64,000 nucleotides of DNA. Origin: Candidatus Liptonbacteria bacterium. Lineage in GTDB: Bacteria > Patescibacteriota > Minisyncoccia > UBA6257 > JACOXY01. A model generated the notes under the pieces. That model was given only the letters and a program-made list of their open reading frames with translations. It searched no databases and was not told the origin of the DNA. The first letter of the stretch is position 1. Every line of letters begins with the position of its first letter. The position numbers were made by a program, and so were the translations under genes. Below, one piece after another: positions 8,025-35,921 of the stretch. The stretch spans positions 3,794 to 67,793 of the forward strand of contig JACOXY010000011.1 in the NCBI GenBank assembly GCA_016182095.1, given 5' to 3'.

Positions 8025-8030
8025 AATAAA

Positions 8031-10812: not shown

Positions 10813-10833
10813 GAACGAAGTAATAAGTAAAGA

Positions 10834-10877: not shown

Positions 10878-10940
10878 CAGTTGCTAGTTACTAATGTTTG
10901 TGTTACAAATAGCGTAGCATTATTTATCGGGGGGTTTCAA

Positions 10941-11213: not shown

Positions 11214-11224
11214 ATAGCAGCACA

Positions 11225-11947
11225 TCAGCCAGAATCATTGGCTGATTTTCTTTCCCCTTTGCGGCTTACCCCGCTAAGCATTCTATAGTATTTCCTATAT
11301 AATCTTCCTGGCTTCCTCTTCGCGGCCAGAAAAAATTTAACAATGAATTTCAAATAAAAATAGAGCGTCTTTGATATTAAAGATTTTTTTACAAATAAAA
11401 CGTCGCCATTGTTGGTTAGTGAAAAGGGAATGCAATAAAATCCGGCTGATTCCAGTTTTGCTTTAATTTTCTCCACTCTGGGTTTTAATTCTGGATATAA
11501 GAAATCATGAAATTCAATGGTCATTTGATTAACATCCTTAAGATCATCAGGGGTCGCGGCTCCCAGTATCTGAACCTCTTCGCCCTCGATATCTATTTTT
11601 ATTAAGTCCACCTTTCCGTTCTGTTTTAAGATATTTGTGAATGCCACACTTGGGACTCGTATACTTGACTCTGATTTTTCAACCACCGTAATATCCATCC
11701 CCCGCCCCCAGGATAAATCTAAGTAACCATCCTCAACGCCCACAGCTTTGTTTATCTTTTGTACGAGATTATTAGCTGGAATGCGTTCAAAAAGTTCCCG
11801 TAGTGGCTCAAAGGTCAAGACCTTACAGCCAAAATCTTCGGATATGCGCCGCGCGAATTCACCCCTGTTACCGCCCAAATCCAAAACAAAAGAATTTTCG
11901 TCCAAAAGATTTCCCAAAAAGTTGTGTTCGCAGATTTCTTTAATCAT
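11225..11947 (-). CDS. FkbM-family methyltransferase
   Basis: LDLGGNRGEF...TFEP...KIDIEGEE is the Methyltransf_21 (FkbM) signature. Confidence 0.7.
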   Translation of the reverse strand: MIKEICEHNFLGNLLDENSFVLDLGGNRGEFARRISEDFGCKVLTFEPLRELFERIPANNLVQKINKAVGVEDGYLDLSWGRGMDITVVEKSESSIRVPSVAFTNILKQNGKVDLIKIDIEGEEVQILGAATPDDLKDVNQMTIEFHDFLYPELKPRVEKIKAKLESAGFYCIPFSLTNNGDVLFVKKSLISKTLYFYLKFIVKFFLAAKRKPGRLYRKYYRMLSGVSRKGERKSANDSG

Positions 11948-16194: not shown

Positions 16195-17091
16195 CTAGGA
16201 AACCATCTTTAATCTTATTTTCTCTTTGCTCATATTTTTGATATAAAAAACGTCGCTTTCGTTGATAAATTTGGGGGTCCCCTTTATAGATTTTATCCCG
16301 CCAATAATATAATCCGCAGCGGAAGCAATTTCATAATAACCCGTTTTTTTAAATTCCGAAATTTCTCCCAAATTGACATCCGAAAAAACAGCGGAGTCGG
16401 GAAAGAGGTGTTTGGAAAAATCAATCGGTTTATTTAATAGCTGGAATGGCCCTATATTAAAATTGAAGAGGTAATTTTCAATAGTTTTATTCATTTCGGC
16501 GTGTAAATTCAGTGCCTTGTCGTCTCCATGGCCGTGTGTAATTACTCCGTGGTTTTCCAAAAAAATGATCTGTGGTAGCTCCATTTTCCGGCTCATCCTG
16601 TAAATAGCGAGGGCAAGATTAAAACCTGGATTATAATATGGAACAAAAAGAGTGTCTTGGCCTTTAAAAATTTCCTTTAAAACTTTTTCGCCTCCCTCCA
16701 TGCAATTAAATACATTGGCGTAAACACTGTGGGAATGTATGACATACTCCGAATCAAAAACCGCATGCATCCCGGCTTCTATGGAAGCTTCCCCAAAACT
16801 TTCGTCCCCGAAGCTATTTTTTTGAATCCATAAGTTGAAGTCATTTTCCGACTTCGCAAAGGATGCCTCTTCTAAACCCTGTCTCACCTTTTCAAAATCG
16901 CAGGCAATGTAGCCCTTATTCTCTTTTAAATCTTTAAGCAAGCAGCCCGATGCTTTTACGTACATTTTTTTACCTATCTTAACCGAAATATTGCCTCCGG
17001 CGCCCTGCGCGTAAGCGGGCGAAGACCCGATATTTTGCGACAGCCGGAAAAAATTGTTTAGTTTGTTCATTTCTTTAAAATACCTGCCCAT
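16195..17091 (-). CDS. class II aldolase/adducin-family protein
   Basis: GNISVK..., VIHSHSVYA and ENHGVITHGHG match the zinc-binding His blocks of class II aldolases and MtnB-like dehydratases. Confidence 0.55.
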   Translation of the reverse strand: MGRYFKEMNKLNNFFRLSQNIGSSPAYAQGAGGNISVKIGKKMYVKASGCLLKDLKENKGYIACDFEKVRQGLEEASFAKSENDFNLWIQKNSFGDESFGEASIEAGMHAVFDSEYVIHSHSVYANVFNCMEGGEKVLKEIFKGQDTLFVPYYNPGFNLALAIYRMSRKMELPQIIFLENHGVITHGHGDDKALNLHAEMNKTIENYLFNFNIGPFQLLNKPIDFSKHLFPDSAVFSDVNLGEISEFKKTGYYEIASAADYIIGGIKSIKGTPKFINESDVFYIKNMSKEKIRLKMVS

Positions 17092-19254: not shown

Positions 19255-19911
19255 TTATTTTTTAACTAAAACCGCTCTTAAGCCCGGCCCTTTCGCGCCC
19301 AGCATGTCGCGCTTATAGCTATCCCCCAGAACCATTACGTCGCCGCGCTTAAATCCAACCTTTTGAAGGGCAAGCTTAAAGATATGGGGGGCGGGTTTTT
19401 CCCTTCCCGCCTCCTCGGAGGATACAATAAAATCAATATATTTTGCAATCTTTAGAAGTTTAACCTTTTTGAATTGGATCCTGGCGGTTAGGTCGGTAAC
19501 TAAACAGATTTTAATATGATTCTCTTTGCATTCCTTTAAAAAACCCAGCGCCCCTTTTGCAAGCTTCATTTTTCCAAAAAAACTTTTCCAGTATAAAGTT
19601 TCCAAATCTAAAGTCAGATCAACATTTGTCTTCCCAAAATAATTTTCCAAAAGAGCCTGAAAATATAAAAGCCGAGAGTGGGAAGCGGCTTGAGTTGGAA
19701 TTCTTTTTTTAATCTTTTCTTTGGCTCTTTCATAAAATCGCAAAAAATCTTCGAATGAAAGTTTTTCTACTTTAGTAAATTTTTTATAACAAGCCAAAAT
19801 GGCATACTCATGACACGCGCGATAGTCGTAGAGAGTATTATCCAAGTCCAAAAGGATTGCCTTTGTTCCGCGAAGATTGATCTTTGAAAATTTCACGAGT
19901 TTTTGTTTCAT
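19255..19911 (-). CDS. HAD-superfamily hydrolase (phosphatase)
   Basis: ILLDLDNTLYD is HAD motif I, LVTDLT is motif II, and LGDSYKRDMLGA is motif IV. Confidence 0.65.
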   Translation of the reverse strand: MKQKLVKFSKINLRGTKAILLDLDNTLYDYRACHEYAILACYKKFTKVEKLSFEDFLRFYERAKEKIKKRIPTQAASHSRLLYFQALLENYFGKTNVDLTLDLETLYWKSFFGKMKLAKGALGFLKECKENHIKICLVTDLTARIQFKKVKLLKIAKYIDFIVSSEEAGREKPAPHIFKLALQKVGFKRGDVMVLGDSYKRDMLGAKGPGLRAVLVKK

Positions 19912-21508: not shown

Positions 21509-22915
21509 TTATGGAAGCCAGTTGTTCCTGAATTTGTTTTCGTTTTTACTAATTTTCTCGAAGAGGGCAGTAACGCGAGAAGCCGATAATTCATGATTAA
21601 CATGCAGGTGGATGTAAAGCTGGTCCACAAGATAAAGCAGAAAAAAGTAATAAGCATCGCCTTTTTCTATATTCCAAAACTTGAGCATGCAGTCTAAAAT
21701 GCTTTGAATCTTAGTATTTTTTATAAAAAATAAATCTTGGATATTTCGTTCATATAACTCCACATAATTACCTTTTTTAAATCTACCGCCGCTTATTATC
21801 AAACTGTACAAATCGAAAATCTGCGGGAAGCCAAATCTCGCCTGCTCCCAGTCTATGACAAAAAACTTAGAACTTAGAACATTGAACATTGAACTGCTGG
21901 GGGCGGCAACACAAAGCATCTCAAAAAATGGAAACTCTCTCTTGGTAAGAGAAAAAATAAATGATTTGCTGTTTAAATTATCAACAGCTTTATCAAAAAA
22001 ATATTTTATCGACTTAAATCGTTCGTTGCTCATTTTTGATTGCAAAAATGAGAGTTCGCTTTGTATTTCGTTATAAAAATTAGATTCAGTAAAAATCTTT
22101 TCCTCTTTGGTTTTATCTGATAGTTTTTTTAAAAAATCAAGGTGGCAATTTTTAATAGCATCAATCCCGCGCGTACCACCAAACATTCCAACATTCTGCC
22201 CTAATTGGCCGAGCCAACGGGCTTTAGGCCCTAATTGGCCGAGCCAACGGGCTTTAGGCCCTAATTGGCCGAGCCAACGGGCTTTAGGCCCTAATTGGCC
22301 GAGCCAACGGGCTTTAGGCAGAATGTTGGAATGTTTGGTCTCTGATGATGGTGGTGGTGGGGAGAGAATTATGACAAGCGCTCCGCGAAAATAATCTTTG
22401 GCGAGTACCCGAGGAAAAGAAAATCCTGGTATATCTAATTTTTGTAAATAATCGAGGATTTTGGCTTCGTTCTCGCCATAAATCTCGCTTTCACGGCCAG
22501 GAAAATAAACTTTAGCGACACTCAAAAGCTTGCCGCTTTTTTCGCCAAAAATGGGAAGTATATATTTTCTGGAACCGGAGTAAACTGAAAAAGTGACCGG
22601 CTCTTCGAATTTGGTTTTAGAGGCGAGAAAAGAAAAAATCTCTTCGTTTTTGTCTACAAAAACTTTTTTTCTAAAAACAAACCACCAAACAAAATCAAGA
22701 TTAAAAATCCTTAAAAGAGTTATTTTGGCCTTACTCCAAAAATCTTTGCCTTTGTAAAGATAAAATTCTCTTAATGCGGCGGCTCGGAGATGCTTCGCGC
22801 CAAAAGGCAAAGCCACTCCGCTTTTTAAAAATTCACCGCTTAGCACCACGAATCGCGCCTCGCTAAAGCTACGAGATTTTTTTATATCTACTTTCTCAAA
22901 CAAATTCCACGGCAT
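21509..22915 (-). CDS. choline/aminoglycoside-kinase-like (APH-fold) protein carrying an in-frame 54-codon repeat insertion
   Basis: FFVIDWEQARFGFPQIFDL resembles the IDxE...FD block of choline kinase/APH. The expected HxDxxxxN catalytic motif is not evident. A 4x GPKARWLGQL repeat is encoded by the Family-1 element. Confidence 0.45.
   Translation of the reverse strand: MPWNLFEKVDIKKSRSFSEARFVVLSGEFLKSGVALPFGAKHLRAAALREFYLYKGKDFWSKAKITLLRIFNLDFVWWFVFRKKVFVDKNEEIFSFLASKTKFEEPVTFSVYSGSRKYILPIFGEKSGKLLSVAKVYFPGRESEIYGENEAKILDYLQKLDIPGFSFPRVLAKDYFRGALVIILSPPPPSSETKHSNILPKARWLGQLGPKARWLGQLGPKARWLGQLGPKARWLGQLGQNVGMFGGTRGIDAIKNCHLDFLKKLSDKTKEEKIFTESNFYNEIQSELSFLQSKMSNERFKSIKYFFDKAVDNLNSKSFIFSLTKREFPFFEMLCVAAPSSSMFNVLSSKFFVIDWEQARFGFPQIFDLYSLIISGGRFKKGNYVELYERNIQDLFFIKNTKIQSILDCMLKFWNIEKGDAYYFFLLYLVDQLYIHLHVNHELSASRVTALFEKISKNENKFRNNWLP
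22178..22339. repeat. Family-1 palindromic element, copy D: 23 bp perfect inverted arms around 4 x 30 bp tandem repeats (162 bp total), in-frame within a CDS
   Basis: Arms accaaacattccaacattctgcc / ggcagaatgttggaatgtttggt. The interior is (ctaattggccgagccaacgggctttaggcc)x4. Its length is a multiple of 3 and the host ORF stays open. Confidence 0.85.
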
Positions 22916-24649: not shown

Positions 24650-25342
24650 CTACACAACTTTTTTGAGCATAAACTTTTCTCCTTGCTCATAGACACCACC
24701 GCGCACATAGGTGAGCGGCAAGATCAAACATCCTTTCTGAATAAGCGTTCCCGGATCGCAGACCGCGGAACATCCAAGCTTTGTGCCATCGCCCAAAACC
24801 GCGCCAAACGACTTGCGCCCCGTATCTACTCCTCCTACCCGGACAGTAGTCATCGTAATCTTTGTATTCGCAAGTTGGGTACCAGCGCCTACCGTGGCAT
24901 TGTTCCCAAAAATGCTGTCTCCAATGTAGTTAAAATGCGATGCCTGCGAACCATCGAGCATGATGGTATTTTTGGCCTCCGTAGAGTTTCCGATAATACA
25001 TTTTTCTCCCGTAATCACTGGGCCTCGGATAAACGCCCCAGGACCTACAATTGACCTGGGACCAATAAACACAGGCCCGCGAATGTATGCTGTAGACTCC
25101 ACAATCGCACCATCGGAAATTATAATATTGTCGCCGTAAAGCTTAGCGCCTACACGCACCTCGCCTTTGATGCGTCCTCCGGCGGAAATGCTTTCAATTA
25201 ACTTCATGAGGTATTCATCAAGGTTGTTCAGCGCGTCCCATACAGTCTCGCTTTTATCAAAAAGCGCTTTGTGGATATATTTCGAGAGATCGAAGTAGGT
25301 TTCGGGGGCAAAGTTCTTTTTCATATCTTGATTATTCCACAC
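24650..25342 (-). CDS. hexapeptide-repeat (LbH) transferase, GlmU-C-terminal-like
   Basis: After a ~70 aa N-terminal region there are tandem hexapeptide repeats (IRGPVFIGPRSIVGPGAFIRGPVITG...). Confidence 0.55.
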   Translation of the reverse strand: MWNNQDMKKNFAPETYFDLSKYIHKALFDKSETVWDALNNLDEYLMKLIESISAGGRIKGEVRVGAKLYGDNIIISDGAIVESTAYIRGPVFIGPRSIVGPGAFIRGPVITGEKCIIGNSTEAKNTIMLDGSQASHFNYIGDSIFGNNATVGAGTQLANTKITMTTVRVGGVDTGRKSFGAVLGDGTKLGCSAVCDPGTLIQKGCLILPLTYVRGGVYEQGEKFMLKKVV

Positions 25343-25916
25343 TTTTGCGGTTTTTCATATATTTTTTCGCGAACTCCCAGGCAACAATACTCTGCCCATC
25401 AAATATTTTCCCGCTTGCAATCAAGCGGTCAACCTTACCGGGCGAGCATTCGATAGTTCGAATATCCTGTTCTGCCTCTTCGCGGCTGTGAGCCCCCCGA
25501 GAAAGACCGGATGCCAGGAACACACTCGTCCACTCGTTCGTAACGCCATTGTAGGGGCAAAACCCGCCTATTTTTTTTGTCACGCGCGCCGAAAAGCCGG
25601 TTTCTTCTTTAAGCTCCCTCACTGCCGCGACACGAGGAATTTCGCCTCTTCCCACTCCGCCACCCGGGAACTCAATGCTTTCGCGCCCCAAAAGATATCG
25701 GTACTGCCTCAAAAGAAGCACGTTCCCGCCCTGAAGCACCGGCACGATGAAGACCCCGCCTTCGGAATGATGGTAGTAGTAACTTCCCATTTTACCGCTT
25801 GGAAGCACAAACCGGTCTTCCTTAAACACCGACCATGGAGTCGTTTTAAACGAACGCGAAGAAACCGTCGCGTACGGCTTTTGCTGGTTTCGTTTTTGTG
25901 CTCGTCTCTTTTTCAT
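25332..25916 (-). CDS. NUDIX hydrolase; start reassigned to the MKKRR ATG at 25916, which overlaps the upstream stop by 4 bp
   Basis: Nudix box [27 protein letters not shown] (Gx5Ex7REUxEExGU). Confidence 0.65.
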
Positions 25917-27016
25917 TTTGTTGCGGTTGTAAAATTCTTCACAACGTCCGCGACAACGCTGACTTCTTCGGCGGTCAACTCTGGAAACATTGGGAGTGAG
26001 ATAATCCGTTCTGCCACACGCTCTGCGACAGGAAACGCCCACCGCTTATGCCCCAGGCGCGCATAAGCCCCTTGAAGGTGAAGTGGTATTGGGTAATGAA
26101 TGCCGCTTTCAATACCGCTCTCTTTGAGCGAGGCCTGAAGCCTATCGCGCTCCAGGGCCTCAATCACGTATAAATGATACGCGTGTCGTATGCCCGGGAG
26201 CACTTTTGGTATTGCTACGACACCCCCAAGTTTATCATCATATATTCGCGCAATGCTGTTTCTTTTTTCCATCCACTCATCAATATGTTTTAGTTTCGCA
26301 TCAAGAATTGCCGCCTGTAGCCCATCCAAACGACTATTAACACCTTCAAATTTATGGCTATATTTACCGACTCTTCCATGATTGGCGAACATTCTGATTT
26401 TTTCCGCAAGTTTATCGTCATTGGTAACAACTGCCCCGCCATCACCATAAGCGCCCAAATTTTTCGCAGGATAAAAGCTAAAAGTAGCCGCCGTGCCAAA
26501 AGTCCCAACTTTTTTGTCCGCATATTCCGCCCCATGAGCTTGCGCCGCATCTTCAATCACCATTAGCCCCCTGCTATTTGCTATGCGCATTATTTCATCC
26601 ATATCCGCTGGTTGTCCATAAAGATGTACCGGGATAATTGCTTTGGTTCTAGGAGTAATTGCGGCCTCAATTTCACTGGGATCAATATTGTAATACTCGT
26701 TGCAATCAACAAAAATAGGCGTGGCGCCCGCAAGAGTCACTGCCTCCGCAGTTGCAATAAAGGTGTTTACGGGAACAATTACCTCGTCTCCAGCACCAAC
26801 ACCCAAACATTTGAGCGTGATAAAAATGGCATCGGTGCCATTCCCAACGCCAATGCAATGTTTTGCACCTATATACGCGGCAAAGTTTTTCTCAAAATTT
26901 TCTACGTATTTACCCTTAATAAAGGCGGATTCTTCTATTACAGATTTTATAGCCGCAACAATTTCTTCCTTGATAGAAAGGTATTGTTTTTTAAGATCAA
27001 CAAGGGGGATTTTCAT
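25913..27016 (-). CDS. DegT/DnrJ/EryC1-family PLP-dependent sugar aminotransferase
   Basis: Full-length match with the catalytic-lysine block [19 protein letters not shown] and GVGNGTDAI. Confidence 0.85.
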
Positions 27017-27132
27017 CTCTAAAACGCTAAACTCTAATTTCTAAACTCTAAACAATTTCTCTGCTAAAGGCGGATTAGCTTTCGGCTAAAAAACTCAAAA
27101 TTTCAAACGCTTTGAAAATTATAATTTAGAGC
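27017..27132 (-). promoter_or_regulatory. conserved leader/promoter element, copy 1 (upstream of the aminotransferase gene)
   Basis: About 90% identical to 31193..31335 and 32380..32440. It contains a TTTAGAGTTTAGAAATTAGAGTTTAG motif and a small hairpin YAGCYTTCGGCTR with a compensatory change between copies. Confidence 0.55.
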
Positions 27133-28125
27133 TTAAGCGAAGCGCACAATTTGTCCGGTTTTAGCCGATTCTTTAGCCTTTTCCATAAACCTTACCAACT
27201 GTATGGCATGATCATCCAGGGCCAAAAATCTGTTACTATGATCCCCTTTTTGTATCGCTTCGACCACTCCTTCAAAAACCTTGTCATGATTAGACATCGA
27301 GCCTTTATAGGTTCCGTAGTCATTAGCTCCGGCGCCCTCCTCCAATTCATAAGTCGGAACTCCATTTACTTGGAATTGTTCAATGGTATTCAAATATTCT
27401 CCGCCGATTTTTACAGTGCCTTCCGTACCGATAAGCGTAATTGAGCCCTCAAAATTTTTATGGGTAGCACAGGTCGTATAGTTAAACGATCCGATAGCGC
27501 CATTAGCAAATTCCACTGCTATAACTCCGGCATCTTCTGTTTCAATTTTCTGTTTAAATGTGCCCATCAAAGCGTAAACCGATTTGGGCGGCCCCATAAA
27601 TTCAAGCATTAGATCGACAAAGTGGCTTGCCTGCGTAAAGAGCGCTCCGCCATCCAAAAGATGGGTTCCACGCCAAGCGTCAGCCTTATAATAATCTTCA
27701 CCCCTATTCCAAAACTAGCGATTTTGCTTTACCACATAGAGAAACTTTTGATTACGATAGGCGGCGTCAATCATGGCGCGGGCATCCTTCTCGGTAAACG
27801 CCATGGGCTTTTCACAGAGTACGTGCTTTTTGGCATTTAAGGCGGCTATGGAGTGCTCAGGGTGCAGACCTGAAGGAGTACAAATGTTTATAAGGTCGAT
27901 TGAATCATCTTTAACTAAATCTTCGGCATTGTAATAAGCTTTAACGCCTTGGTATTTTTTTACGATCGCATCGACGCGATCAGAAACAAGGTCACAAACC
28001 GCCACTAATTTAGCCCCATTTACATTTTGGAGTTTTTCCGCGTGCCTAGACCCTATTTTCCCGCATCCCAAGATAGCAAATTTAACCTCGTTCATTGTGA
28101 GTTCATAATACAGCATTTTTGCCAA
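27133..28125 (-). pseudogene. Gfo/Idh/MocA-family oxidoreductase interrupted by a single in-frame TAG (27715..27717)
   Basis: The N-terminal Rossmann part (27715..28125, FAILGCGKIGSRHA...) and the C-terminal part (27133..27657) are in the same frame, separated only by an amber codon: ...VVKQNR*FWNRGEDYYKADAWRGTHLLDGGALF... Confidence 0.55.
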
Positions 28126-28163: not shown

Positions 28164-28940
28164 TTAAATGAATTCCAGAACTAACGGCAAGTGGTCAGAG
28201 ACCTCAATATTTAAAGTTTTGAGGTTGCTTACGACAACATTTTGAGATACAAATATATAATCAGACACTGTGTCGCCCTCTCCCAAAAGTAGTGGGCTTC
28301 TTGTATATTTAATCCCGTAATTTTTAGTAACATTAACCAAAACTTTTTCGATCATGCCCACGCTTAAAGTTTCCGGGGAAAGATTAAAATCTCCGCAAAG
28401 TATTTTTTTGGTAGGCGAAGATTTTTTTAAAAAATCCAAAATTATTTCCGACTGTCTGATCCTTTCGGGGTTATCAACCTTGGGCCAGGTCGGTATGCCA
28501 TGAACATTACAGATTATGTAAGAACTGCCTTTATAAGAAATTTCAACAAATTGCATATTCTCGGGAAAAACATTGTCCCCGTCTTTATCGTCTTTTGCTA
28601 CCTCATTTTTATTTTTATATGTAAAAATTTCTCCGCTTTTTTTAATTTCGGCCGTATTTTTAACAAATGTGGCTTGGCCGGATGAAAGATCAAAATTAAC
28701 GGAACTCACATAATCATATCTGTCGCATTGAGCCGAAAAGGCTCCTTTAAAATCCGGCAGGGCTGTCTCGATTTCGCCGTAAAGATTAGACCTCATTCCA
28801 TTGCTTAATTTATGAAGTCCGCTTGATGTAAAAATTTCTTGAAAACAAAAGATGTCGGTGGTCGCGGCCGATGTTTTGATAAAATCCAGAAGCGGTCCAA
28901 AAACTCTTCCCCCCCAAGCATTTAGGCAAATGAGTTTCAT
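28164..28940 (-). CDS. endonuclease/exonuclease/phosphatase (EEP) family protein
   Basis: LNAWGG..., CGDFNLSPE, ...SDHLPLVLEF are EEP catalytic blocks. Confidence 0.65.
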   Translation of the reverse strand: MKLICLNAWGGRVFGPLLDFIKTSAATTDIFCFQEIFTSSGLHKLSNGMRSNLYGEIETALPDFKGAFSAQCDRYDYVSSVNFDLSSGQATFVKNTAEIKKSGEIFTYKNKNEVAKDDKDGDNVFPENMQFVEISYKGSSYIICNVHGIPTWPKVDNPERIRQSEIILDFLKKSSPTKKILCGDFNLSPETLSVGMIEKVLVNVTKNYGIKYTRSPLLLGEGDTVSDYIFVSQNVVVSNLKTLNIEVSDHLPLVLEFI

Positions 28941-31192
28941 TGTTTGCTAAAACTTTTATCTAAATTTCTAAATGCTTTTAAAAGGCCCTCTGTGTCCTCT
29001 TTATAGCTCCAGTCGGAAATAATTTCCTTTGATTTACCTTTCATTGATTCCAGAAGTTGTTCGTTATCTATAATTTTCTTAATATAGTGAGCTAATGCCT
29101 CAATGTCGCCCAGGCGATAGACAAAACCATTTTCGCCTTGCCTTACTAAATCCACCTGCGCCCCAATAGTGTGGGGAGCAATAACCGGCAAGCCGCAAGC
29201 CATGGCTTCATTCACAGTCGCGCCCCAATCGCCTTTTATATAATCGTCGGTTCTCACAAAAATATCAGTGATAGCATAGAGCTTTATTAATTCTCTTTGG
29301 TTTTTAAAACCTAAAAATTTTACGTTCGACAGACCTTTCTTCGCTACTTCTTTTTCAAGCGGTCCTTTTAGCTCTCCGTCGCCTATCATTAGTAAGCAAG
29401 TATCAGTAATTGAGTAATCAGAAATTAGTAATTCGTACGCCTTGATTACATGCTCGGGGTGCTTGTCATGCACAAAACGCGCCGCATAAGTTATAACTTT
29501 GGCTTTTGGGTCTATGCCAAGCTCACGCTTGATTTCATCGCGGCTATTTTCATATTTTTTTGATTCTTCCATAAAAAATTCGTTCCAAACGGCATAAGGA
29601 AAATGAAATATGCGCTCTTTAGGCGCGCCAAACTCAAGGTACATTTCACGATTCCAGGTACCAATCGCCAAAAAACCGGAAACAAATCCACGGAAAATAA
29701 TTTTTAAATATAGTCGTTTAAGCAATAAAAGAAATTTTGAACGCATTACATGCTTGTCATAATTAGAAGAATTTACAACTCGCAAAAATATCGGTGTTAA
29801 AGTAATTTTTGCGGATAAAAGCGTAAGCCAGGAAGTTATGTCCATCCAACCCAAAACAATCACGGCATCGTACCTGTTTTTCAGTAACTTCCAAAAAATA
29901 CCCGGATTAAATAATCCCCAAATTGAAGGCCTGGGTTTTGGCGCGTAATTTCGCAAAAATTTTAATTTATAGCCTACAAGTAGCGGAATATCCCATTTGT
30001 AAGCGATGCTGAAAAAATCTTTATGTAATTGCGGCTTGGAAACTCCCCAGTCAACACAATAATAAACAGTTATGTCTATTCGCTGATTCTTCGCAATTTC
30101 ACGCCATAGGGGAGATTGATATTGAATAGGATGAGTCGCGACTACCGCCAACTTATATTTTTTTGGCGCTAACTGGAGCGCAAATTCTTCGGCTACTTCA
30201 GGAAGCGTTTTGTCTGTTTTAATCTCCAAAAAATTCTTCGCTTTCATTCCCCATCTACGGTACTCCTCAAGCTGACGGCCGATCTCTTCCGGAGTATGCT
30301 CTTGTCTTCTTTCATAAATTTCCGATGCGTCATTTGAAAGCAAGATCGCCAAGTCGGGTTTTGGCATAAAGAAAAAAGCTGCCTTAAAAAACCATAATGG
30401 AATTCCGTATTTTGTCTTCGGCCTCGGATCAACAAGGTGACTATAATAATATCTTTCGCCAATCACCGTTTTCCCTTTGGTTAAAAGCGGGCGAATCACA
30501 AACCAGTATCCCAAAAAGTGGTCTAGTGCATGATATAAAAATCTGAAAAATCCAGGGATCCGCGATTCGCCCGGGGGTTGCTTATTTTTGCCAAAAGAAA
30601 ACATCCCCTGCTTGGTTGGTAGGATCTTTGGCCGAAACCCAAGGTGCGCGTGCCACACAGGCACATGGAAAGCTTCCAGAATTTTTGCCGCCAGCTCTGC
30701 GGTTGCCGATTTGCCGACTCCATCGGGACCCAGCACAACCACAAAATTGCCCGGCGGGGAAAGAAGCCGTGAGGGATAAGAAAGGATATTCTTAAGCGTG
30801 CTTTTTGGCTTTTTTTCGTAAAGCATTTCGGGAATATGGTATATTTCTTTTTCATTTTTTTCCCGTTTAGCGAGCAACGCTCCCGGATTTTTCACAGGAT
30901 TAGTGAAGTCCAATCTCAAGAAAACCAGCTCATTCCCGACAAATGTGTAGAGCACCATGTATAATCCGCCAATATTTTGCCGCTCGTAAACTTTAAATCC
31001 ATTATCTAGTGCGCACTCGCCGACAAAATCGCGAACCATCCTTTCGTCTCTTTTTTCTATAACTATGTCTATATCGTTTCCTATATTTTCCGGTATGAGT
31101 TCCGCCTTCCTTAAAACTGCGTAATTTATTCCACGCTTATTTAGCCCATCAAAAAAAGAAGTGAGTATTTTAGCAACTAATGGATGAGTCAT
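28937..31192 (-). CDS. tri-domain fusion: nucleotidyltransferase-like N-domain + Tmk-like P-loop kinase + GT4 glycosyltransferase
   Basis: N-terminus NIGNDIDIVIEKRD (minimal nucleotidyltransferase fold); middle VVLGPDGVGKSATAELAAKIL (dTMP-kinase-like GxDGxGKS); C-terminus ...YAITDIFVRTDDYIKGDWGATVNEAMACGLPVIA (GT1). Confidence 0.6.
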   Translation of the reverse strand: MTHPLVAKILTSFFDGLNKRGINYAVLRKAELIPENIGNDIDIVIEKRDERMVRDFVGECALDNGFKVYERQNIGGLYMVLYTFVGNELVFLRLDFTNPVKNPGALLAKREKNEKEIYHIPEMLYEKKPKSTLKNILSYPSRLLSPPGNFVVVLGPDGVGKSATAELAAKILEAFHVPVWHAHLGFRPKILPTKQGMFSFGKNKQPPGESRIPGFFRFLYHALDHFLGYWFVIRPLLTKGKTVIGERYYYSHLVDPRPKTKYGIPLWFFKAAFFFMPKPDLAILLSNDASEIYERRQEHTPEEIGRQLEEYRRWGMKAKNFLEIKTDKTLPEVAEEFALQLAPKKYKLAVVATHPIQYQSPLWREIAKNQRIDITVYYCVDWGVSKPQLHKDFFSIAYKWDIPLLVGYKLKFLRNYAPKPRPSIWGLFNPGIFWKLLKNRYDAVIVLGWMDITSWLTLLSAKITLTPIFLRVVNSSNYDKHVMRSKFLLLLKRLYLKIIFRGFVSGFLAIGTWNREMYLEFGAPKERIFHFPYAVWNEFFMEESKKYENSRDEIKRELGIDPKAKVITYAARFVHDKHPEHVIKAYELLISDYSITDTCLLMIGDGELKGPLEKEVAKKGLSNVKFLGFKNQRELIKLYAITDIFVRTDDYIKGDWGATVNEAMACGLPVIAPHTIGAQVDLVRQGENGFVYRLGDIEALAHYIKKIIDNEQLLESMKGKSKEIISDWSYKEDTEGLLKAFRNLDKSFSKQ

Positions 31193-31335: not shown

Positions 31336-32379
31336 TTATTCAGCGATTATCTCAAACATTTTCTCCAATCTTTTTTGAAAGGTGTACTCCCTGTGAGCGC
31401 GCGCGTAAGCAGTATCCGCGATTCTTTTTCGTTCATCATCATGATGGAGATAATAATCAACTTTTTCTAATAATTCGGTCGGGTTTTTGAAAGTAACTAT
31501 TTCTTTATCAATTTCAAAAAAATTTTTAATTTCGTCCCGGTGTTCACAAAGCTGAAATCCTCCACAGCCCGCGATTTCAAAAAAACGCTGATTCACTCCC
31601 AAAAACTCTCCTTGAAACGTGTTCAAAACGATCTTGGCGCCATTAAAGGCTTTGGATTTTTCAAGTTCGGAAACTGCTCTTCCTTGATAAACTTTTTTAA
31701 CTGGGGATTTGAGCCATCGGGGAATATCTAATCCCCACAACTTAACTTTATATTTTTTGATAAGCGGCTCAAAAACTTTGGCGCGAAAATAATACATATT
31801 GCCGGCAGTAGTTATGTCACACTCATAAATTTCCTTTTCTTCTTCAGTCAATTCCACACGCTTATGCCATTTAGGCATACAGGCTTCCGGTAAATAATGC
31901 GCGCTTAAGCCTAAAGACAGCGCCCGATCTACCAGAAATCTGTCTTTAAAAAATAAGGCATCATAGGGAGCGGCAAAAAAATATTGCCTGCCGATATTGC
32001 CGGGATGATCGGGAAACCAAAGCACAATTTTAGCTCCGGTATTTTTCTTGAGGCGGCTTATGATTTCCGGTGGGGTCTTGGCGCTTACCGTTATAATCAA
32101 ATCCGGATTATTTTTCTCTATAAGACCCGCGAGCCGGCTGTAAGTTTTGAATTCATACTTGGAAGACCTCACTATCAAAGTTTCTATGGCAGCTTTTTTA
32201 GCTCGTGTAAAAAAACCAAGCCGGCCATTTTTGTCCACGCCTTTTTTAAATGAAATCCCGAGCATTTCCCGCTCGTCAACCGCAGAAACTTTATAACCCA
32301 TACTTTCCAAGGTAACCAAAATGCTCTTCGGCAAGGTATCCGCATGCTGGGGTCCAACAACAACTATATTTTTATACAT
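31336..32379 (-). CDS. CgeB-family (DUF3880 / Glyco_trans_1_2) glycosyltransferase-like protein
   Basis: C-terminus FFEIAGCGGFQLCEHRDEIKNFFEIDKEIVTFKNPTELLEKVDYYLHHDDERKRIA matches the CgeB-like domain. Confidence 0.55.
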   Translation of the reverse strand: MYKNIVVVGPQHADTLPKSILVTLESMGYKVSAVDEREMLGISFKKGVDKNGRLGFFTRAKKAAIETLIVRSSKYEFKTYSRLAGLIEKNNPDLIITVSAKTPPEIISRLKKNTGAKIVLWFPDHPGNIGRQYFFAAPYDALFFKDRFLVDRALSLGLSAHYLPEACMPKWHKRVELTEEEKEIYECDITTAGNMYYFRAKVFEPLIKKYKVKLWGLDIPRWLKSPVKKVYQGRAVSELEKSKAFNGAKIVLNTFQGEFLGVNQRFFEIAGCGGFQLCEHRDEIKNFFEIDKEIVTFKNPTELLEKVDYYLHHDDERKRIADTAYARAHREYTFQKRLEKMFEIIAE

Positions 32380-32440: not shown

Positions 32441-32818
32441 CTAAGATCTGCTCTTCCCGCTCTTTTCAATAATTGATCCGAAAATTCTCATAAGTTCTTC
32501 AGCTTCATTGGTGAGAACTACGCACTCTTGCTCAAGGGTAACAACATTGCCCGTGTCAAGCAACCGAAGCCAAGATCGACTTTCTTTGGCTTCTTTCCTG
32601 CAGATTTTTATTCTGTGCATACCGTCTTTTTTACTCAATGTCTCGACAAACTCTATAAAATTGGCATGCGTTGAGCCAGAGGAGCGCGCGAGCTGCTTCC
32701 CATCTTCTATGTTTCCAATAGTTCTTGGTAATTCTTTGACGAGAACACGGCATCGTTTCGCAAATAAAAAAGTTCTTTCTTCAAGATTATATGGTTTTGA
32801 GTTTTGAGTTTCCGGCAT
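32441..32818 (-). CDS. four-helix-bundle protein (23S rRNA intervening-sequence protein family, TIGR02436)
   Basis: ERTFLFAKRCRVLVKELP...ARSSGSTHANFIEFVE...KICRKEAKESRSWLRLL matches the family consensus. Confidence 0.6.
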   Translation of the reverse strand: MPETQNSKPYNLEERTFLFAKRCRVLVKELPRTIGNIEDGKQLARSSGSTHANFIEFVETLSKKDGMHRIKICRKEAKESRSWLRLLDTGNVVTLEQECVVLTNEAEELMRIFGSIIEKSGKSRS

Positions 32819-32849: not shown

Positions 32850-34274
32850 TTAGAGTTTGTTGATGTAACTTTTTACATCAACCACATACATCTGTCGGCT
32901 ACCGTCATGCACCGAATCAAAACAAATTTGAGTACCATCACGATTCCAGCGCGGATGAAGATCGGAGCGCATTTCGCTTATATCCCACGGCTCAACGCGG
33001 CCATCGGGCAGCGTATTTGTTTTTAAGCCAGAGGGCAAGGAATGGAACTTACCAATCTCTATTTTTTTTCCGGTTATCCAATTATAAAGAATAAGCGCGC
33101 GATAATGATTTTTGTCCGGGTATGTATCTGTTATAACCCAATTTCCGTCGTATGAAAATTGCGGGTGGCCGTCTTCGGTCATTAAACCCACCGCGATACG
33201 CCTTACTTTTTCAGATTTATCATGCAACAAGAAATAACTTTGACCCGCAATTTTTTGCTTTAAACTGCCGCGCAGTAATCTCACCAATCGCAGGAGAGGC
33301 TTAAATAAAGGATTATTTAAAATTCCAATTCTTCGCAGAGCCACCGCTTGAGGACTCCATTTCCCGTAAGCTAAAATTTCCGCGTCATTACGCCAACCAA
33401 AGTGAGAAATGTGGCCCGGCAAAACGTAAATATCGCCGCCATCTGGATTCGCTGTTACAAACCGCTGCATAGATCCGCCATCGGGTAATAAGAACTTGTC
33501 GACAAAACAGATTCGCGTGCCGGATGGATTAAAGTTAACATGAGTGAGATAGTGATGCTCATTTTCTCGTGGAAAGTTATTGAGATGCGCAACATCGTGA
33601 ATAGAAATTGCTAATTTAACTTCTCCGGTCTCCAAATCAATCCGAAAAATACCGTCATCTTTAGGAAACGGCTCCTCAAGATTTAGAGTTTCGGATTTAG
33701 AGTTTAGAGTTTGATAGGCATAACCATAACCTCCATATTTTTTTAGGCGAGCAAAGTTAAGGCCCAGAGCAAACTTTCCGTTCGGACTAACCGCGTAAAT
33801 CGGGGCGGGTAGCACTTTTTTTTCGCCAGTTTCTACATCCAATATCACGGAGACAAACCGCTCTCCCTGCCTATCATTGTAGATACACTTTCTTACAATA
33901 TTGGGGTTTCGGATGTCCAACCCGGACCCATCAATATTTGGGACATCCGAAGCAACGCCACCAGGCAGCCACTGCAATCGTGAACCTTGATGAAAATTCC
34001 ATGCATTGGTCTCTGCCAATGCTACCAATGACATTTGACCATTAACATTTGACCCCGAATCAAAACCTTTGGTTTTTGACGGGGCAAGCATATCTATCAA
34101 ACAAATACGCGCGGTATCCGAAGCGGTGGGAGGACGATATATAAAATCAACTTCTTCGGCAAGTAAAAATCTGCCTGATGCATCCCACGGACACAAATCG
34201 TGAAAACCAAAGAAGTGATGTTTTGGCCCAACGGTTACACCTTTTATTGGGAACTTGGAAATAAGATTTGGCAC
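32850..34274 (-). CDS. beta-propeller (TolB/PD40-like) domain protein
   Basis: Repeated ...SPNGKF..., ...NPDGGDIYVL..., ...HPRWNRDGTQICFDS...DGSRQMYVVDV blocks typical of PD40-type propeller blades; low specificity. Confidence 0.4.
   Translation of the reverse strand: MPNLISKFPIKGVTVGPKHHFFGFHDLCPWDASGRFLLAEEVDFIYRPPTASDTARICLIDMLAPSKTKGFDSGSNVNGQMSLVALAETNAWNFHQGSRLQWLPGGVASDVPNIDGSGLDIRNPNIVRKCIYNDRQGERFVSVILDVETGEKKVLPAPIYAVSPNGKFALGLNFARLKKYGGYGYAYQTLNSKSETLNLEEPFPKDDGIFRIDLETGEVKLAISIHDVAHLNNFPRENEHHYLTHVNFNPSGTRICFVDKFLLPDGGSMQRFVTANPDGGDIYVLPGHISHFGWRNDAEILAYGKWSPQAVALRRIGILNNPLFKPLLRLVRLLRGSLKQKIAGQSYFLLHDKSEKVRRIAVGLMTEDGHPQFSYDGNWVITDTYPDKNHYRALILYNWITGKKIEIGKFHSLPSGLKTNTLPDGRVEPWDISEMRSDLHPRWNRDGTQICFDSVHDGSRQMYVVDVKSYINKL
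33680..33713. repeat. TTTAGAG/TTTAGGA heptamer cluster inside the propeller CDS (encodes ...QTLNSKSETLNLEE...)
   Basis: atttagagtttcggatttagagtttagagttt is the same heptamer family as the intergenic leader motif and the (TTTAGGG)4 repeat. Confidence 0.6.
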
Positions 34275-34358: not shown

Positions 34359-35921
34359 ATGATAAATTCTCAAAATATCAAGCCTTTTTTTATTTTTTCT
34401 GCAATAACAATAATTGCCGTGTCGTTTTTAATAGCGGGTTTTAATGTGTACCCTCCTCCATCCGGGAACTCCTCGCTCTTTGTTCCGCCGGCAATAAATT
34501 TAGCCGCAGGCAACGGCCTAATAGACGATCTAAGCCACATACGCCTAAACCAAACTAAGGACGCTCGATTTATTTCTTATCCGCCATTGTATCCGGTTCT
34601 TTTAAGTATATTGATGCCAAGGACGGATTCCATTGGCGCCTTTGTCGCAATCGCGGTAATGGAAATTTTAATCATAAGCTTCACGGCCTTAATTCTCTAC
34701 AAAATCCTAAGAACCACCGGGGATAACGGGGAAATTTCCTGGTTTAATATTTTAATAATAATTTTTAGTATTTTTGCTATTGCGGGCCCCCTATTAAATT
34801 ACAACGGCACCAGACCTGAAATTGTTTTCCAGCTAATCTCGGTGGCATGGATAATGTCTGTGATATATTTAACGCGCCACAAAAATTTATGGATGTTATT
34901 GGGAATAATTATTGGGGCTGGTTTGGCCACACATCCCTTGCACGGTTTTTATTTTTCAATTTTATCCGCATTGCTTTTTTCCTATGTCACGAATACTAAA
35001 TCGGCGATTAATAACATCCTGAGGGCGGGCGTACTGGGTGTTTTAGTTTTCTTGTTAATTTTAGCTCTCTCTCCACATGGCGCGCTTGATTATCTAAACG
35101 GAATGCGCGACATGGCATTTAGATATGCGAGCACCATGATATTTTGGACCGGATCGTCGCCCCTCACTGGTTTCGAGAGTCCGCTAAACACATACGGACA
35201 AGATTTGCTGCGTTATCTGGTGTTGAGTCCGGCAAGCTTTTTCTGGGGGCCATTTGTATTATTTGTTTTGATTTTAGCGGCGAAAAACTACAAAAGGTTA
35301 AATTCGGGTATAAAATCTCCCCATTTATTCTATTTGTTTTTATTCGTTTTTTTAGCAGTGATGAGCGGCATTATTTTTCTGGGGCATGCTGACAGTATTT
35401 ATTATTTGACCATGCTTGGTTCAATATTCGTAGTAATTGCATCTTATTTAGTATCGAAAGAGAAAGTTTTCGGTCGCGTAGTTTTATTTATGCTTCTGGC
35501 TACCATGAGCATTAGCTCTCTAAGGGTCTTTGTTTTAATGCCATTTTATTTTTTGGACGGAGTCAGAATCAGTGAGGCGAGGAATATTATTGAAAACTTA
35601 AATTTGCCGGATTGCGATGATTGCGTCGGAATATCACCGGCAAACCTATGGGTACTTTCGGAAAATTATCCTTCAATAATAACCGAGCTTCAGGCGGAGC
35701 GAACAGGAGAAAATTTGGGGAAGACAGCCAAAATAATACTTTTGGGACAGCACGGTTCGAGTCTCATGGAGCCCCCAAAAGAAATAAAGGGATGCCAAAT
35801 AGAAAAAGATTACTTTGCTAAAGAAAAACCTCCAAGCTTTTTTGGCATCAAAATAGCCAATATTATCCCCGGCCATGGTTTTGCCGTCTATGAGTGTGAG
35901 ATACAAACAAAATCAATTTAG
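34359..35921 (+). CDS. polytopic membrane protein with C-terminal soluble domain, paralog 2 of 19908..21491
   Basis: N-terminal block NVYPPPSGNSSLFVPPAINLAAGNGLIDDLS aligns with paralog 1; more than 10 hydrophobic helices. Confidence 0.45.
   Translation: MINSQNIKPFFIFSAITIIAVSFLIAGFNVYPPPSGNSSLFVPPAINLAAGNGLIDDLSHIRLNQTKDARFISYPPLYPVLLSILMPRTDSIGAFVAIAVMEILIISFTALILYKILRTTGDNGEISWFNILIIIFSIFAIAGPLLNYNGTRPEIVFQLISVAWIMSVIYLTRHKNLWMLLGIIIGAGLATHPLHGFYFSILSALLFSYVTNTKSAINNILRAGVLGVLVFLLILALSPHGALDYLNGMRDMAFRYASTMIFWTGSSPLTGFESPLNTYGQDLLRYLVLSPASFFWGPFVLFVLILAAKNYKRLNSGIKSPHLFYLFLFVFLAVMSGIIFLGHADSIYYLTMLGSIFVVIASYLVSKEKVFGRVVLFMLLATMSISSLRVFVLMPFYFLDGVRISEARNIIENLNLPDCDDCVGISPANLWVLSENYPSIITELQAERTGENLGKTAKIILLGQHGSSLMEPPKEIKGCQIEKDYFAKEKPPSFFGIKIANIIPGHGFAVYECEIQTKSI

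Follow-up and report, generated by a model that had tools for sequence, protein, structure and literature searches.

Phosphate-linked groups are placed on surface glycans by the LicA/LicC/LicD phosphocholine system and by WbdD-type kinase-methyltransferase terminators, which rely on APH/choline-kinase-fold kinases, nucleotide-dependent transferases and methyltransferases. LicC has a GT-A-like fold, and we know of no P-loop kinase that takes part in the Lic or WbdD-type systems. Kanamycin nucleotidyltransferase (NTase) and the PF14907 proteins carry a helical domain after their core. The Campylobacter enzymes Cj1415-Cj1418 produce CDP-phosphoramidate 3'-phosphate, which probably serves as donor for a capsule decoration (PMC11800397). 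Addition of a hexose to a serine phosphorylated by PsmK requires PsmN, an uncharacterised member of the NTase family that is inactivated by mutation of its catalytic DxD (PMC6993621); PsmN has shown no in-vitro activity to date (PMC11912497). Here we describe a 751-aa protein of a candidate-phyla-radiation (CPR) bacterium in which a predicted NTase-like domain and a P-loop kinase are fused to a GT4 glycosyltransferase, a new variant of arrangement whose constituent folds are already known.

The protein is encoded in the window, a stretch of 64,000 nucleotides, by an uninterrupted ORF with an ATG start (28937..31192, including the stop codon; this and all other features below lie on the minus strand). 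An identical NCBI entry, P0001, is titled 'MAG: glycosyltransferase [Candidatus Liptonbacteria bacterium]'. An earlier note, made from the sequence alone, had read the ORF as a tri-domain fusion, quoting the motifs GNDIDIVIEK, located at aa 38-47 (31052-31081), and VVLGPDGVGKSATAE, located at aa 152-166 (30695-30739). Pfam, profile and AlphaFold2/Foldseek evidence over the single ORF bears out this architecture: an NTase-like part (aa 1-125), a P-loop kinase (aa 146-340) and a GT4 part (aa 346-751). The note had also failed to recognise a described family, and indeed we found neither a curated family in Pfam or NCBIfam for the fusion or for its NTase-kinase module nor a paper on either.

The fusion is genuine and not a frameshift product, because the frameshift that the note had raised as a source of an artificial join fails when set against fused homologs, independent assemblies and a junction at a natural boundary. 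About ten homologs with 47-76% identity carry the same fusion in independent ENA, JGI, Logan, NCBI and TARA assemblies (P0002-P0006 and P0008-P0011 full-length, P0007 shorter), and the species-representative genomes include two more fused cases (L010 and L011). In split relatives, the module and glycosyltransferase (GT) halves are neighbouring genes of the same conserved cassette with a 4 bp overlap. In L001, for example, the first gene ends in '...VEKLIRK' and a stop, and the second restarts with 'MIQNKKYKLAVVASHPIQYQ' over an ATGA overlap, whereas the fused query reads '...ALQLAPKKYKLAVVATHPIQYQ' across the junction. Comparison with such split orthologs places the junction at aa 339-351 (LQLAPKKYKLAVV; 30140..30178), and the join coincides exactly with the natural boundary between genes that are separate in relatives. 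The GC content of the fusion region (0.38-0.41) is similar to that of its surroundings. A frameshift or a chimeric contig that fused two separate genes would agree with the separate, overlapping halves of close relatives and with the in-frame stop in the neighbouring Gfo/Idh/MocA gene, which means that the sequence is not flawless. However, the identical NCBI fusion, the homologs from independent assemblies, the fused L010 and L011, the conserved linker sequence and the basal position of the fused forms in a rough tree effectively refute this explanation, which we give next to no chance. Rather than being an isolated case, the 751-aa protein represents a fusion, specific to its lineage, of two genes that normally lie side by side and are translationally coupled.

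The N-terminal domain (aa 1-125; 30818..31192) is predicted to have a Pol-beta-type NTase-like fold. Modelled alone with AlphaFold2, it reached a pLDDT of 87.8 with the element order H4-19, E24-26, E40-45, H47-63, E67-70, E78-85 and E88-95, and nearly all of its top 50 Foldseek matches were Pol-beta-superfamily NTases, the best at probability 0.9-0.98, although no match of the domain alone reached E<=1e-3 (best E 8.8e-3, query-normalised TM about 0.4). A Pfam search of the query returned nothing over aa 1-140; two relatives gave sub-threshold PF14907 matches (E 1.1e-3 and 0.1), and weak DUF2204 matches were also seen in relatives. The second strand carries a putative metal-binding DxD, D40-I-D42 (31067..31075), and strand E88-95 a putative third carboxylate, D95, in RLDF (30908..30910), both without variation in alignment A3 and nearly so in A1 and A2. 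Where the classic hG[GS] turn would be expected, 10 residues ahead of the DxD, a motif scan found L27-R28-K29 (31103..31111). The pattern hG[GSDN]-x10-DxD is kept by 33 of 168 family members (5 with strict hG[GS]), most others having H[SG] and the query's clade RK or RN. Since the query has L-R-K instead of the canonical nucleotide-binding turn, classical nucleotidyl transfer cannot be assumed, and judging from these residues the N-domain of this clade may transfer no nucleotides at all. The NTase-like assignment proposed in the note is thus upheld by the predicted fold, the carboxylate triad and the signature remnants in relatives, but not by a significant sequence match. The linker that follows (aa 126-145; 30758..30817) is modelled with lower confidence (pLDDT 64-71), and long-form relatives have a helical domain of about 100 aa inserted at this position in alignment A1.

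The kinase fold of the middle region (aa 146-340; 30173..30757) is solidly assigned. Pfam Thymidylate_kin matches aa 155-322 with 35.0 bits (gathering cutoff 27), the family profile aligns with solved thymidylate kinases along the entire P-loop domain (3lv8 best, E 3.8e-9), and an AlphaFold2 model covering aa 1-345 (mean pLDDT 85.8, pTM 0.84) matches thymidylate kinase structures in Foldseek with a target-normalised TM of 0.65-0.72 at probability 1.0. The pTM of this model also suggests that the NTase-like and kinase domains form a rigid two-domain unit. The Walker A motif, G155-P-D157-G-V-G-K161-S162 (30707..30730), has G155, D157, G158, G160 and K161 invariant in A1; H183-L-G-F-R187-P188 (30629..30646), with H183 and P188 near-invariant, aligns with the 'TREP' of 3lv8; E246-R247-Y248 (30449..30457; R247 invariant, Y248 near-invariant), the counterpart of the thymidylate kinase 'DRY/DRH', aligns with the 'DRH' of 3lv8 and reads DRY in the long forms; and the lid-region motif R295-R-Q-E298-H (30296..30310) has R295 and E298 invariant in A1. 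Invariance of the P-loop residues, R247, D255, R295 and E298 in a family of about 23% mean column identity makes them likely catalytic residues. The first 340 residues form a fixed two-domain module in which three carboxylates are conserved and the Walker A, [D/E]RY and lid motifs are all intact.

The C-terminal part (aa 346-751; 28940..30157) is a complete GT-B fold GT4 enzyme and shows every hallmark of a glycosyltransferase that is retaining and depends on nucleotide sugars. The assignment is solid: Pfam Glycos_transf_1 matches aa 551-722 (E 3.9e-33), aa 330-741 share 39% identity with the stand-alone GT P0013, and among solved structures BshA, PimB' and further retaining GT4 enzymes come closest. 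D655...E662 (DWGATVNE; 29207..29230) is a form of the GT4 E-x7-E motif peculiar to this clade, and the split-gene orthologs (L001, L004) have it too; P0009 and P0013-P0015 show the canonical form.

The fusion to GT4 is seen in the ten or so homologs, L010 and L011. The module, whose wide distribution had escaped the note, forms a large family with 3,394 representatives at E<=1e-30 in many phyla, among which we found no characterised member. The NTase-like and kinase pair is a widespread stand-alone module of polysaccharide loci. Long-form loci have Wza, Wzz, Bac_transf, GT1 and Wzy_C neighbours, and CPR loci have GT, methyltransferase, flippase and amino-sugar genes. Its fusion partners vary (GT4, APH-like, flippase-like, acetyltransferase): it is fused to GT4 in two independent lineages, flippase-like membrane domains are joined to it in P0094, P0126 and P0034, and the unrelated protein P0025 combines the module, an APH-like domain and a GT1 domain in a single chain.

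The usual partner of the module is an APH-like kinase and not a GT. About 44 of 64 extended family members have a fused APH-like domain, and of 40 species-representative loci, 32 have one that is fused or at most 8 kb away. In Actinomycetota, separate neighbouring ORFs encode the kinase, APH-like and N-domain parts. Comparative genomics shows that the module belongs to a widespread triad with this kinase. In the window, the partner, which the note had overlooked, is separately encoded, 6 kb from the module gene (468 aa; 21509..22915). It had no match in Pfam, whereas hhalign against the family fused or adjacent to the module elsewhere gave 99.4% probability (E 4.9e-22, 325 columns), and orthologs are present in all cassette loci. 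Because it reads 'KREFPFFEM' where the canonical catalytic loop is 'HGDxxxxN', the partner may be inactive or work differently in this lineage. In L008 and L009, methyltransferase genes flank the APH-like genes.

Other genes of the cassette are conserved as well. Directly upstream of the module gene lies a Glyco_trans_1_2 (CgeB-like) gene (31336..32379; Pfam E 3.8e-33), found at the same position in L001, L004, L008 and L009. A 474-aa protein (32850..34274), with no match in Pfam or NCBIfam, has orthologs in L001 (E 1e-183) and L004 (E 1e-124) and a gene of the same size at its position in L008 and L009; it shows no relationship to the 'unknown 415-aa' partner that long-form loci have. The amino-sugar genes (24650..28125), in the order of L001 and L004, encode a Gfo/Idh/MocA dehydrogenase (27133-28125), in which the in-frame stop is a TAG, a DegT aminotransferase (25913-27016), an inserted NUDIX protein (25332-26042) and an LbH acetyltransferase (24650-25342).

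Our preferred reading, which we hold tentatively and at slightly less than an even chance, is that the product of the fusion gene is a true bifunctional enzyme working in a surface-glycan pathway and that the triad equips the polysaccharide with a phosphate-linked substituent, either by making or by installing it. The likeliest role of the module would be in making or installing such a decoration on the glycan built by the GT domain; we infer the substrates and the sequence of reactions, and an activated phospho-sugar or phospho-alcohol might be channelled on the enzyme, as the note suggested. The most economical scheme, 'kinase, then nucleotidyltransferase, then P-loop kinase', follows the donor logic of PAPS synthesis and of Campylobacter O-methyl-phosphoramidate (MeOPN). 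The APH-like enzyme would phosphorylate a small alcohol or a sugar hydroxyl, the NTase-like domain would join the resulting phosphate to a nucleotide to give NDP-X, and the thymidylate-kinase-like domain would phosphorylate a nucleotide-like acceptor, either the donor ribose or released NMP. Through fusion to the GT, this decoration chemistry would be tethered to the enzyme responsible for placing the acceptor sugar.

It is also conceivable, if clearly less probable, that the glycan is modified directly: the thymidylate-kinase-like domain would phosphorylate a lipid-linked sugar, or its phosphate, right after GT4 addition, and the NTase-like domain would attach a nucleotide, hexose or phospho-alcohol there, in a manner resembling the lasso-peptide pair PsmK/PsmN. 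The independent fusions to GT4 and those to flippase-like membrane domains place the module at the assembly site, and the latter fit direct action on a lipid-linked glycan at least as well as a soluble donor; the weak PF14907 matches in relatives point the same way. Nevertheless, we identified no membrane segment or lipid-binding feature in the module, and the retained P-loop Asp157, 'RP' segment and [D/E]RY favour a nucleotide-like over a polymer acceptor, as these are the hallmarks that serve the nucleotide monophosphate acceptor in thymidylate kinases. The requirement for PsmN and its DxD in hexose addition (PMC6993621) lends this alternative a precedent, weakened by the missing in-vitro activity of that protein (PMC11912497).

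Two further explanations appear improbable. The thymidylate-kinase-like domain could re-phosphorylate NMP or NDP from the pathway transferases, with the N-domain as an accessory or regulatory nucleotide-binding domain, which would relieve product inhibition and feed nucleotide-sugar synthesis in a metabolically minimal organism. GT4 enzymes do release NDP, the fold and catalytic motifs are intact and JGI annotates relatives as 'thymidylate kinase', but the domain and its relatives score at most 47.6 bits against the NCBI dTMP kinase equivalog cutoff of 83.25, and such recycling leaves unexplained the obligate coupling to a conserved NTase-like carboxylate triad and an APH-like kinase in many phyla with full metabolism (Acidobacteriota and Planctomycetota, for instance). 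We are equally doubtful that the module is a non-catalytic regulator or scaffold that, with NTP bound, would control or organise the assembly complex (chain length or export coupling, for instance), leaving the product chemically unmodified. The variety of fusion partners and the lack of a canonical hG[GS] turn in most members would suit such a role, whereas the invariance of D40, D42, D95, K161, R247, D255, R295 and E298 at so low a mean column identity is a pattern typical of enzymes.

Compared with known systems, the proposed decoration enzyme combines familiar folds with unfamiliar details. Its kinase shares with thymidylate kinases (PF02223; 3lv8, 2wwf, 2plr, 5x7j) the fold over the whole domain, a GxDGxGK[ST] P-loop with an acidic residue, 'RP' at TREP, [D/E]RY and a basic lid. 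However, identity is 18-24%, scores lie far below the dTMP kinase equivalog cutoff, a disordered insert of about 20 residues is present (aa 194-209, pLDDT below 50), and the domain always follows an NTase-like domain, in polysaccharide loci and not in nucleotide metabolism. The N-domain has the predicted topology of minimal Pol-beta NTases (kanamycin-NTase-like; PF14907 NTP_transf_5, DUF2204), namely helix, strand, turn, strand(DxD), helix, strand, strand, strand(D), and their three conserved carboxylates, and the helical domain of the long forms recalls the one behind the core of kanamycin NTase and PF14907 proteins, but in the query R-K replaces the G[GS] turn. The GT shares the GT-B fold, the Glycos_transf_1 C-terminal domain and the second Glu of E-x7-E with BshA (5d00/2jjm), PimB' (3okc), MshA (3c4q) and TarM; it differs in the attached 340-aa module, a first acidic residue shifted by one position (GDWG...NE), an N-terminal Rossmann half missed by the Pfam GT4 N-domain models and equivalog scores that reach no more than 82 bits (cutoff 274).

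PAPS synthase (ATP sulfurylase and APS kinase) likewise unites nucleotidyl transfer and a P-loop kinase in one chain that yields an activated phospho-donor, and the MeOPN pathway uses the Cj1418 kinase, the Cj1416 cytidylyltransferase and the Cj1415 kinase; the NTases of both have folds other than Pol-beta, and the likeness to the triad is therefore one of logic and not of homology. PsmK/PsmN also pair a P-loop kinase with an NTase-family protein on which the addition of a group onto the kinase-installed phosphate depends, although their substrate is a peptide, PsmK is HPr-kinase-like and not thymidylate-kinase-like, and the two proteins are separate. With the Lic and WbdD systems, the triad would have in common an APH-fold kinase accompanied by methyltransferases, as in L008 and L009.

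The gene at 28937-31192 (-) is a single unbroken ORF of 751 codons with an ATG start. Both motifs quoted in the earlier note are found in it, GNDIDIVIEK at aa 38-47 and VVLGPDGVGKSATAE at aa 152-166, and the three-part fusion that the note described is indeed encoded as one polypeptide. An identical protein is present in NCBI under the title 'MAG: glycosyltransferase [Candidatus Liptonbacteria bacterium]', which assigns the window to a bacterium of the candidate phyla radiation (CPR), and the GC content of the gene (0.38-0.41) is like that of the flanking DNA. Around ten fused homologs (47-76% identity) occur in NCBI, ENA, JGI, Logan, and TARA data, in independent assemblies; one is from a marine MAG and another from a MAG labeled Nanoarchaeota. 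The fusion was also found in two species-representative genomes (loci L010 and L011). As the fused form recurs in independent assemblies, an assembly artefact is effectively excluded, and the frameshift envisaged in the earlier note as a possible source of an artificial fusion can be set aside. Other close relatives (52-58% identity) encode only the 345-aa unit made of the N-domain and the kinase domain, hereafter the module, and in their contigs the orthologous glycosyltransferase (GT) is the next gene, with a 4-bp overlap. The exact junction reads '...VEKLIRK*' and then 'MIQNKKYKLAVVASHPIQYQ' in the split form, and '...ALQLAPKKYKLAVVATHPIQYQ' in the fused form. In a rough neighbor-joining tree with no support values, the fused forms are basal and the split forms are nested inside them, a topology that hints at an ancestral fusion with later fission.

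The C-terminal part of the protein is a GT4 domain. Pfam places Glycos_transf_1 on aa 551-722 (E 3.9e-33, 114.9 bits vs a cutoff of 26.4), and the closest solved structures, BshA and PimB' for example, belong to the retaining GT4 enzymes. Query residues 330-741 align end to end with a 435-aa stand-alone GT (P0013; 39% identity; precomputed domains PF00534, PF20706, and PF13692), an alignment that indicates that aa 346-751 form a complete two-lobed (two-Rossmann) GT-B enzyme. No characterized GT equivalog (BshA, MshA, PglH, and others) was matched, the NCBIfam equivalog matches being all partial and far under their cutoffs. At the position of the E-x7-E motif, the query reads GDWGATVNE, in which E662 is kept and the first acid, D655, is one position off (D-x6-E). 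The orthologs encoded as separate genes have the same variant, which argues for a clade trait rather than decay.

The thymidylate-kinase-like P-loop domain (aa 146-340) proposed in the earlier note is supported at several levels. Thymidylate_kin (PF02223) matches aa 155-322 with 35.0 bits against a cutoff of 27, over profile positions 3-163 of 185, and is also matched by 29 of the 35 family members. With a profile built from 26 family sequences, solved thymidylate kinases align across the entire kinase domain (3lv8, E 3.8e-9). The AlphaFold2 model of aa 1-345 (pLDDT 85.8, pTM 0.84) matches thymidylate kinases in Foldseek with a probability of 1.0, E ~1e-8, and a target-normalized TM of 0.65-0.72. 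Finally, the query carries the thymidylate kinase motifs, namely the P-loop G155-P-D157-G-V-G-K161-S, E246-R247-Y248 (DRY in the long forms, relatives with a helical insert), and the lid R295-R-Q-E298; G155, D157, G158, G160, K161, R247, D255, R295, and E298 are invariant in the family, and H183 and P188 nearly so. A genuine dTMP kinase was rejected, as NCBIfam TIGR00041 scored 30.0 bits with the full protein, 32.8 with the module, and at most 47.6 with relatives, vs a cutoff of 83.25.

For the N-terminal domain (aa 1-125), no match to query aa 1-140 was found in Pfam, NCBIfam, or PDB sequences, and the families matched commonly in Pfam scans of the 35 alignment members do not include one for the N-domain. 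A model of the domain alone, built from the 35-sequence alignment, reached a pLDDT of 87.8, with DSSP assignments H4-19, E24-26, E40-45, H47-63, E67-70, E78-85, and E88-95. The predicted topology (helix, strand, turn, strand, helix, strand, strand, strand) fits a Pol-beta core. Foldseek retrieved nothing at E<=1e-3 with this model (best E 8.8e-3, query-normalized TM ~0.4); the top 50 matches are almost all nucleotidyltransferases (NTases) of the Pol-beta superfamily, the best at a probability of 0.9-0.98, and include CCA-type tRNA enzymes, Pol mu and lambda, Cid1, OAS, and TdT. The D40-I-D42-I segment and D95 are invariant in the N-domain-only family alignment (A3) and near-invariant in the two other family alignments (A1 and A2), and the model places D40, D42, and D95, a putative triad, on the strands bearing the metal-binding triad of the superfamily. 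The hG[GS] turn, expected 9-13 residues before the DxD, is absent in the query, which has L27-R28-K29 there instead. Among 168 relatives, 33 have hG[GSDN] exactly 10 residues before the DxD, and only 5 have the strict hG[GS]. PF14907 was matched sub-threshold in two relatives only (E 1.1e-3 and 0.1), one of which also matches DUF2204, and a profile search with the N-domain alone (A3) retrieved its own family, mostly as fragments, with no bridge to annotated NTases. The minimal NTase of the earlier note is supported by the predicted fold, the conserved carboxylates, and the traces of the hG[GS] signature in relatives, and by no significant sequence match. Judging from the model, the domain has an NTase-like fold, is probably a descendant of minimal NTases, and has a nucleotide site that departs from the canonical one; it is not a proven nucleotidyltransferase, and in the query it would work at most as a non-canonical NTase. 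In three loci from Actinomycetota/Acidimicrobiia MAGs (L033, L038, and L046; ~7900-12000), a kinase-only ORF accompanies a separate N-domain-only ORF. The APH-like gene separates the two in L033 and L038; in L046 it is found upstream, on the other strand. At the level of gene organization, these split ORFs show that the NTase-like domain should be able to function as an independent polypeptide.

The module belongs to a large family. The query ORF matches the module HMM with E 1e-125, the N-domain and kinase domain being co-linear with it, and an exhaustive search with the family profile gave 3,394 representatives, each standing for a 50%-identity cluster, at E<=1e-30; at E<=1e-10 the number rises to 8,000. 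The full profile (positions about 15-450) is matched by most of them. Members are typically 440-480 aa long and have an additional helical segment inserted between the two domains. Almost all of the family comes from uncultured bacteria, and its names in databases are 'thymidylate kinase', 'hypothetical protein', or merely 'glycosyltransferase'. Species-representative loci were gathered with a closer module subgroup (A4). Among the matches listed, the module is present in 40 of 41 such loci, and the phyla include Acidobacteriota, Thermodesulfobacteriota, Planctomycetota, Verrucomicrobiota, Actinomycetota, Gemmatimonadota, Proteobacteria, Chloroflexota, WOR-3, Bacteroidota, Lentisphaerota, and CPR. 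As to the distribution that the earlier note had suggested examining, the fusion with GT4 is specific to one lineage, and the module is spread over many phyla. No Pfam or NCBIfam model for the N-domain, the module, or the fusion was found, nor any paper on them in the literature searches, in agreement with the earlier note, in which the architecture was not recognized as a described family. All three folds are familiar and their combination is undescribed; this is not a new kind of protein. The earlier interpretation is supported in part, for its folds and for the non-artefactual nature of the fusion; the on-enzyme channelling that it proposed is hypothetical.

Extra domains occur in 64 of the 184 module-bearing proteins examined. 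About 44 of these carry an APH-like kinase domain and 11 a GT4 domain, the latter all in the clade of the query; in a few, the extra part is a MatE/Wzx-like flippase domain, a hexapeptide acetyltransferase, or a domain of no known family. Among the matches listed, an APH-like gene is fused to the module or lies within 8 kb of it in 32 of 40 module loci, usually directly downstream. The window also encodes an APH-like protein (468 aa, 21509-22915 (-)), in the same strand block as the fusion gene and 6 kb away from it; a Pfam scan of this protein gave no match, and hhalign linked it to the APH-like family with 99.4% probability (E 4.9e-22). An ortholog is found in every locus with the conserved gene neighborhood of the query (the cassette). 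The CPR copies read 'KREFPFFEM' where the family has 'HGDFAPWN', so that the catalytic loop is altered. In a different lineage, a 1,262-aa protein (P0025) combines the module, the APH-like domain, and GT1 in a single chain. Taken with the APH-like neighbors and fusions elsewhere, the window gene and P0025 indicate that the functional unit is a triad of NTase-like, thymidylate-kinase-like, and APH-like domains, repeatedly tied to GT4. Within the window APH-like gene, a perfect 30-bp tandem repeat of 4.1 copies (22198-22319) lies in frame and adds about four copies of KARWLGQLGP to the protein; the orthologs in two loci with separate module and GT4 genes (L001 and L004) have no repeat. The repeat may have expanded recently, may be a variable region of the contingency type, or may have arisen in assembly.

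Fused and split loci have one gene order in common. It begins with a no-family protein of ~426-474 aa (474 aa in the window, 32850-34274 (-)), followed by a Glyco_trans_1_2 protein, the module with or without its fused GT4, and then a Gfo/Idh/MocA dehydrogenase (UDP-GlcNAc 3-dehydrogenase-like), a DegT aminotransferase, and an LbH acetyltransferase. The last three are incomplete as a set in some loci, and none of them lies within the L009 contig; GT1, methyltransferase, and flippase genes are scattered through the cassette loci. Its gene content suggests that the cassette encodes a surface-glycan pathway in which an amino sugar is used. Wza, Wzz, Bac_transf, GT1, and Wzy_C are found in the long-form loci, which have the classic makeup of exopolysaccharide loci. 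The 474-aa protein matched nothing in Pfam or NCBIfam, and one of its orthologs has a faint match to PD40 (beta-propeller). Equivalence of this CPR protein with the 415-aa partner found in the long-form loci was rejected (hhalign probability 0.05%). The same fused gene and the same cassette as in CPR bacteria are present in GCA_030695805.1 (L009/L010), a MAG labeled 'Nanoarchaeota archaeon' (DPANN), whose module is 63% identical to that of the query (tblastn). Either genes have passed between the two domains of life, from one episymbiont lineage to another, or the MAG is wrongly binned or classified.

Several features of the region were observed in addition. Adjoining the 474-aa gene and divergently transcribed from it, a 520-aa protein (34359-35921 (+)) matches no family and looks from its sequence like a multi-pass membrane protein. 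Compared with the shared cassette order, a gene of the 23S-rRNA-intervening-sequence type, coding for a four-helix bundle (32441-32818 (-)), is inserted between the 474-aa and Glyco_trans_1_2 genes, and a NUDIX hydrolase (NudE-like) gene (25332-26042 (-)) between those for DegT and the LbH acetyltransferase. The Gfo/Idh/MocA gene (27133-28125 (-)) has a single in-frame TAG at 27715-27717 ('KQNR*FWNRG'), leaving ORFs of 136 and 174 aa, and its orthologs in L001, L004, and L008 are intact (344-346 aa); the TAG may reflect a pseudogene, a sequencing error, or read-through. A 258-aa endonuclease/exonuclease/phosphatase-family gene (28164-28940 (-)), the ATG of which overlaps the TGA stop of the fusion gene (ATGA), is absent from the syntenic loci L001, L004, L008, and L009, and its product may be a phosphodiesterase or phosphatase that joined the pathway in the present genome. 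Finally, a 716-aa protein (17075-19225 (-)) combines an unassigned N-terminal 420 aa with a phosphoribulokinase/uridine-kinase P-loop domain (aa 427-608), and gives this glycan region a second unusual fusion that involves a P-loop kinase; its gene is flanked by those of a HAD hydrolase and a class II aldolase (19255-19911 and 16195-17091).

The wider and more interesting context, which the earlier note did not mention, is that of a widespread module, an APH-like third partner, and a split-gene origin. The fusions of the module with GT4, with the APH-like domain, with the APH-like domain and GT1, and with flippase-like domains serve as Rosetta stones, linking the family to the assembly of polysaccharides. 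They provide a functional anchor for a large unannotated family (at least 3,394 clusters at 50% identity) and yield a short list of proteins for joint expression. The analysis shows the domain folds, conserved residues of a catalytic type, a glycan setting, and the linkage of the triad, and we infer that the triad would make or install a phosphate-linked substituent. If so, this would be a new modification route in bacterial glycobiology, and would also explain an unassigned element that recurs in exopolysaccharide loci, among others in those of Acidobacteriota, Planctomycetota, and CPR bacteria.

With moderate to low confidence, we favor a donor-activation scheme for the triad, in which a kinase would act first, followed by the nucleotidyltransferase and then by the P-loop kinase, because the kinase domain keeps the nucleotide-acceptor features of thymidylate kinases (P-loop Asp, 'RP' segment, and [D/E]RY). 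In thymidylate kinases, these features go with a nucleotide-type acceptor. The main rival is that the module modifies the nascent lipid-linked glycan directly, as its fusions to GT and flippase-like domains would suggest. A role in nucleotide recycling, which would make the present result a minor annotation correction only, is less likely, as is a purely regulatory role. Anti-phage defense is effectively excluded, the PADLOC protein models having given only 26-residue matches at the Walker A level. It is possible, if on balance doubtful, that the triad, present in at least a dozen phyla, is an undescribed unit responsible for a new activated phospho-donor (similar to PAPS or CDP-phosphoramidate 3'-phosphate) or for a new phosphodiester-linked decoration of environmental bacterial polysaccharides, with the GT4 fusions of the CPR clade and P0025 marking the acceptor-forming step.

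The order of kinase, nucleotidyltransferase, and P-loop kinase proposed under donor activation has a parallel in PAPS synthesis, which follows a comparable activation logic. A second parallel is the pathway of Campylobacter in which Cj1415-Cj1418 make CDP-phosphoramidate 3'-phosphate (PMC11800397). Direct modification by the module can be likened instead to PsmK and PsmN, which modify a peptide directly (PMC6993621), whereas the substrate here would be a glycan.
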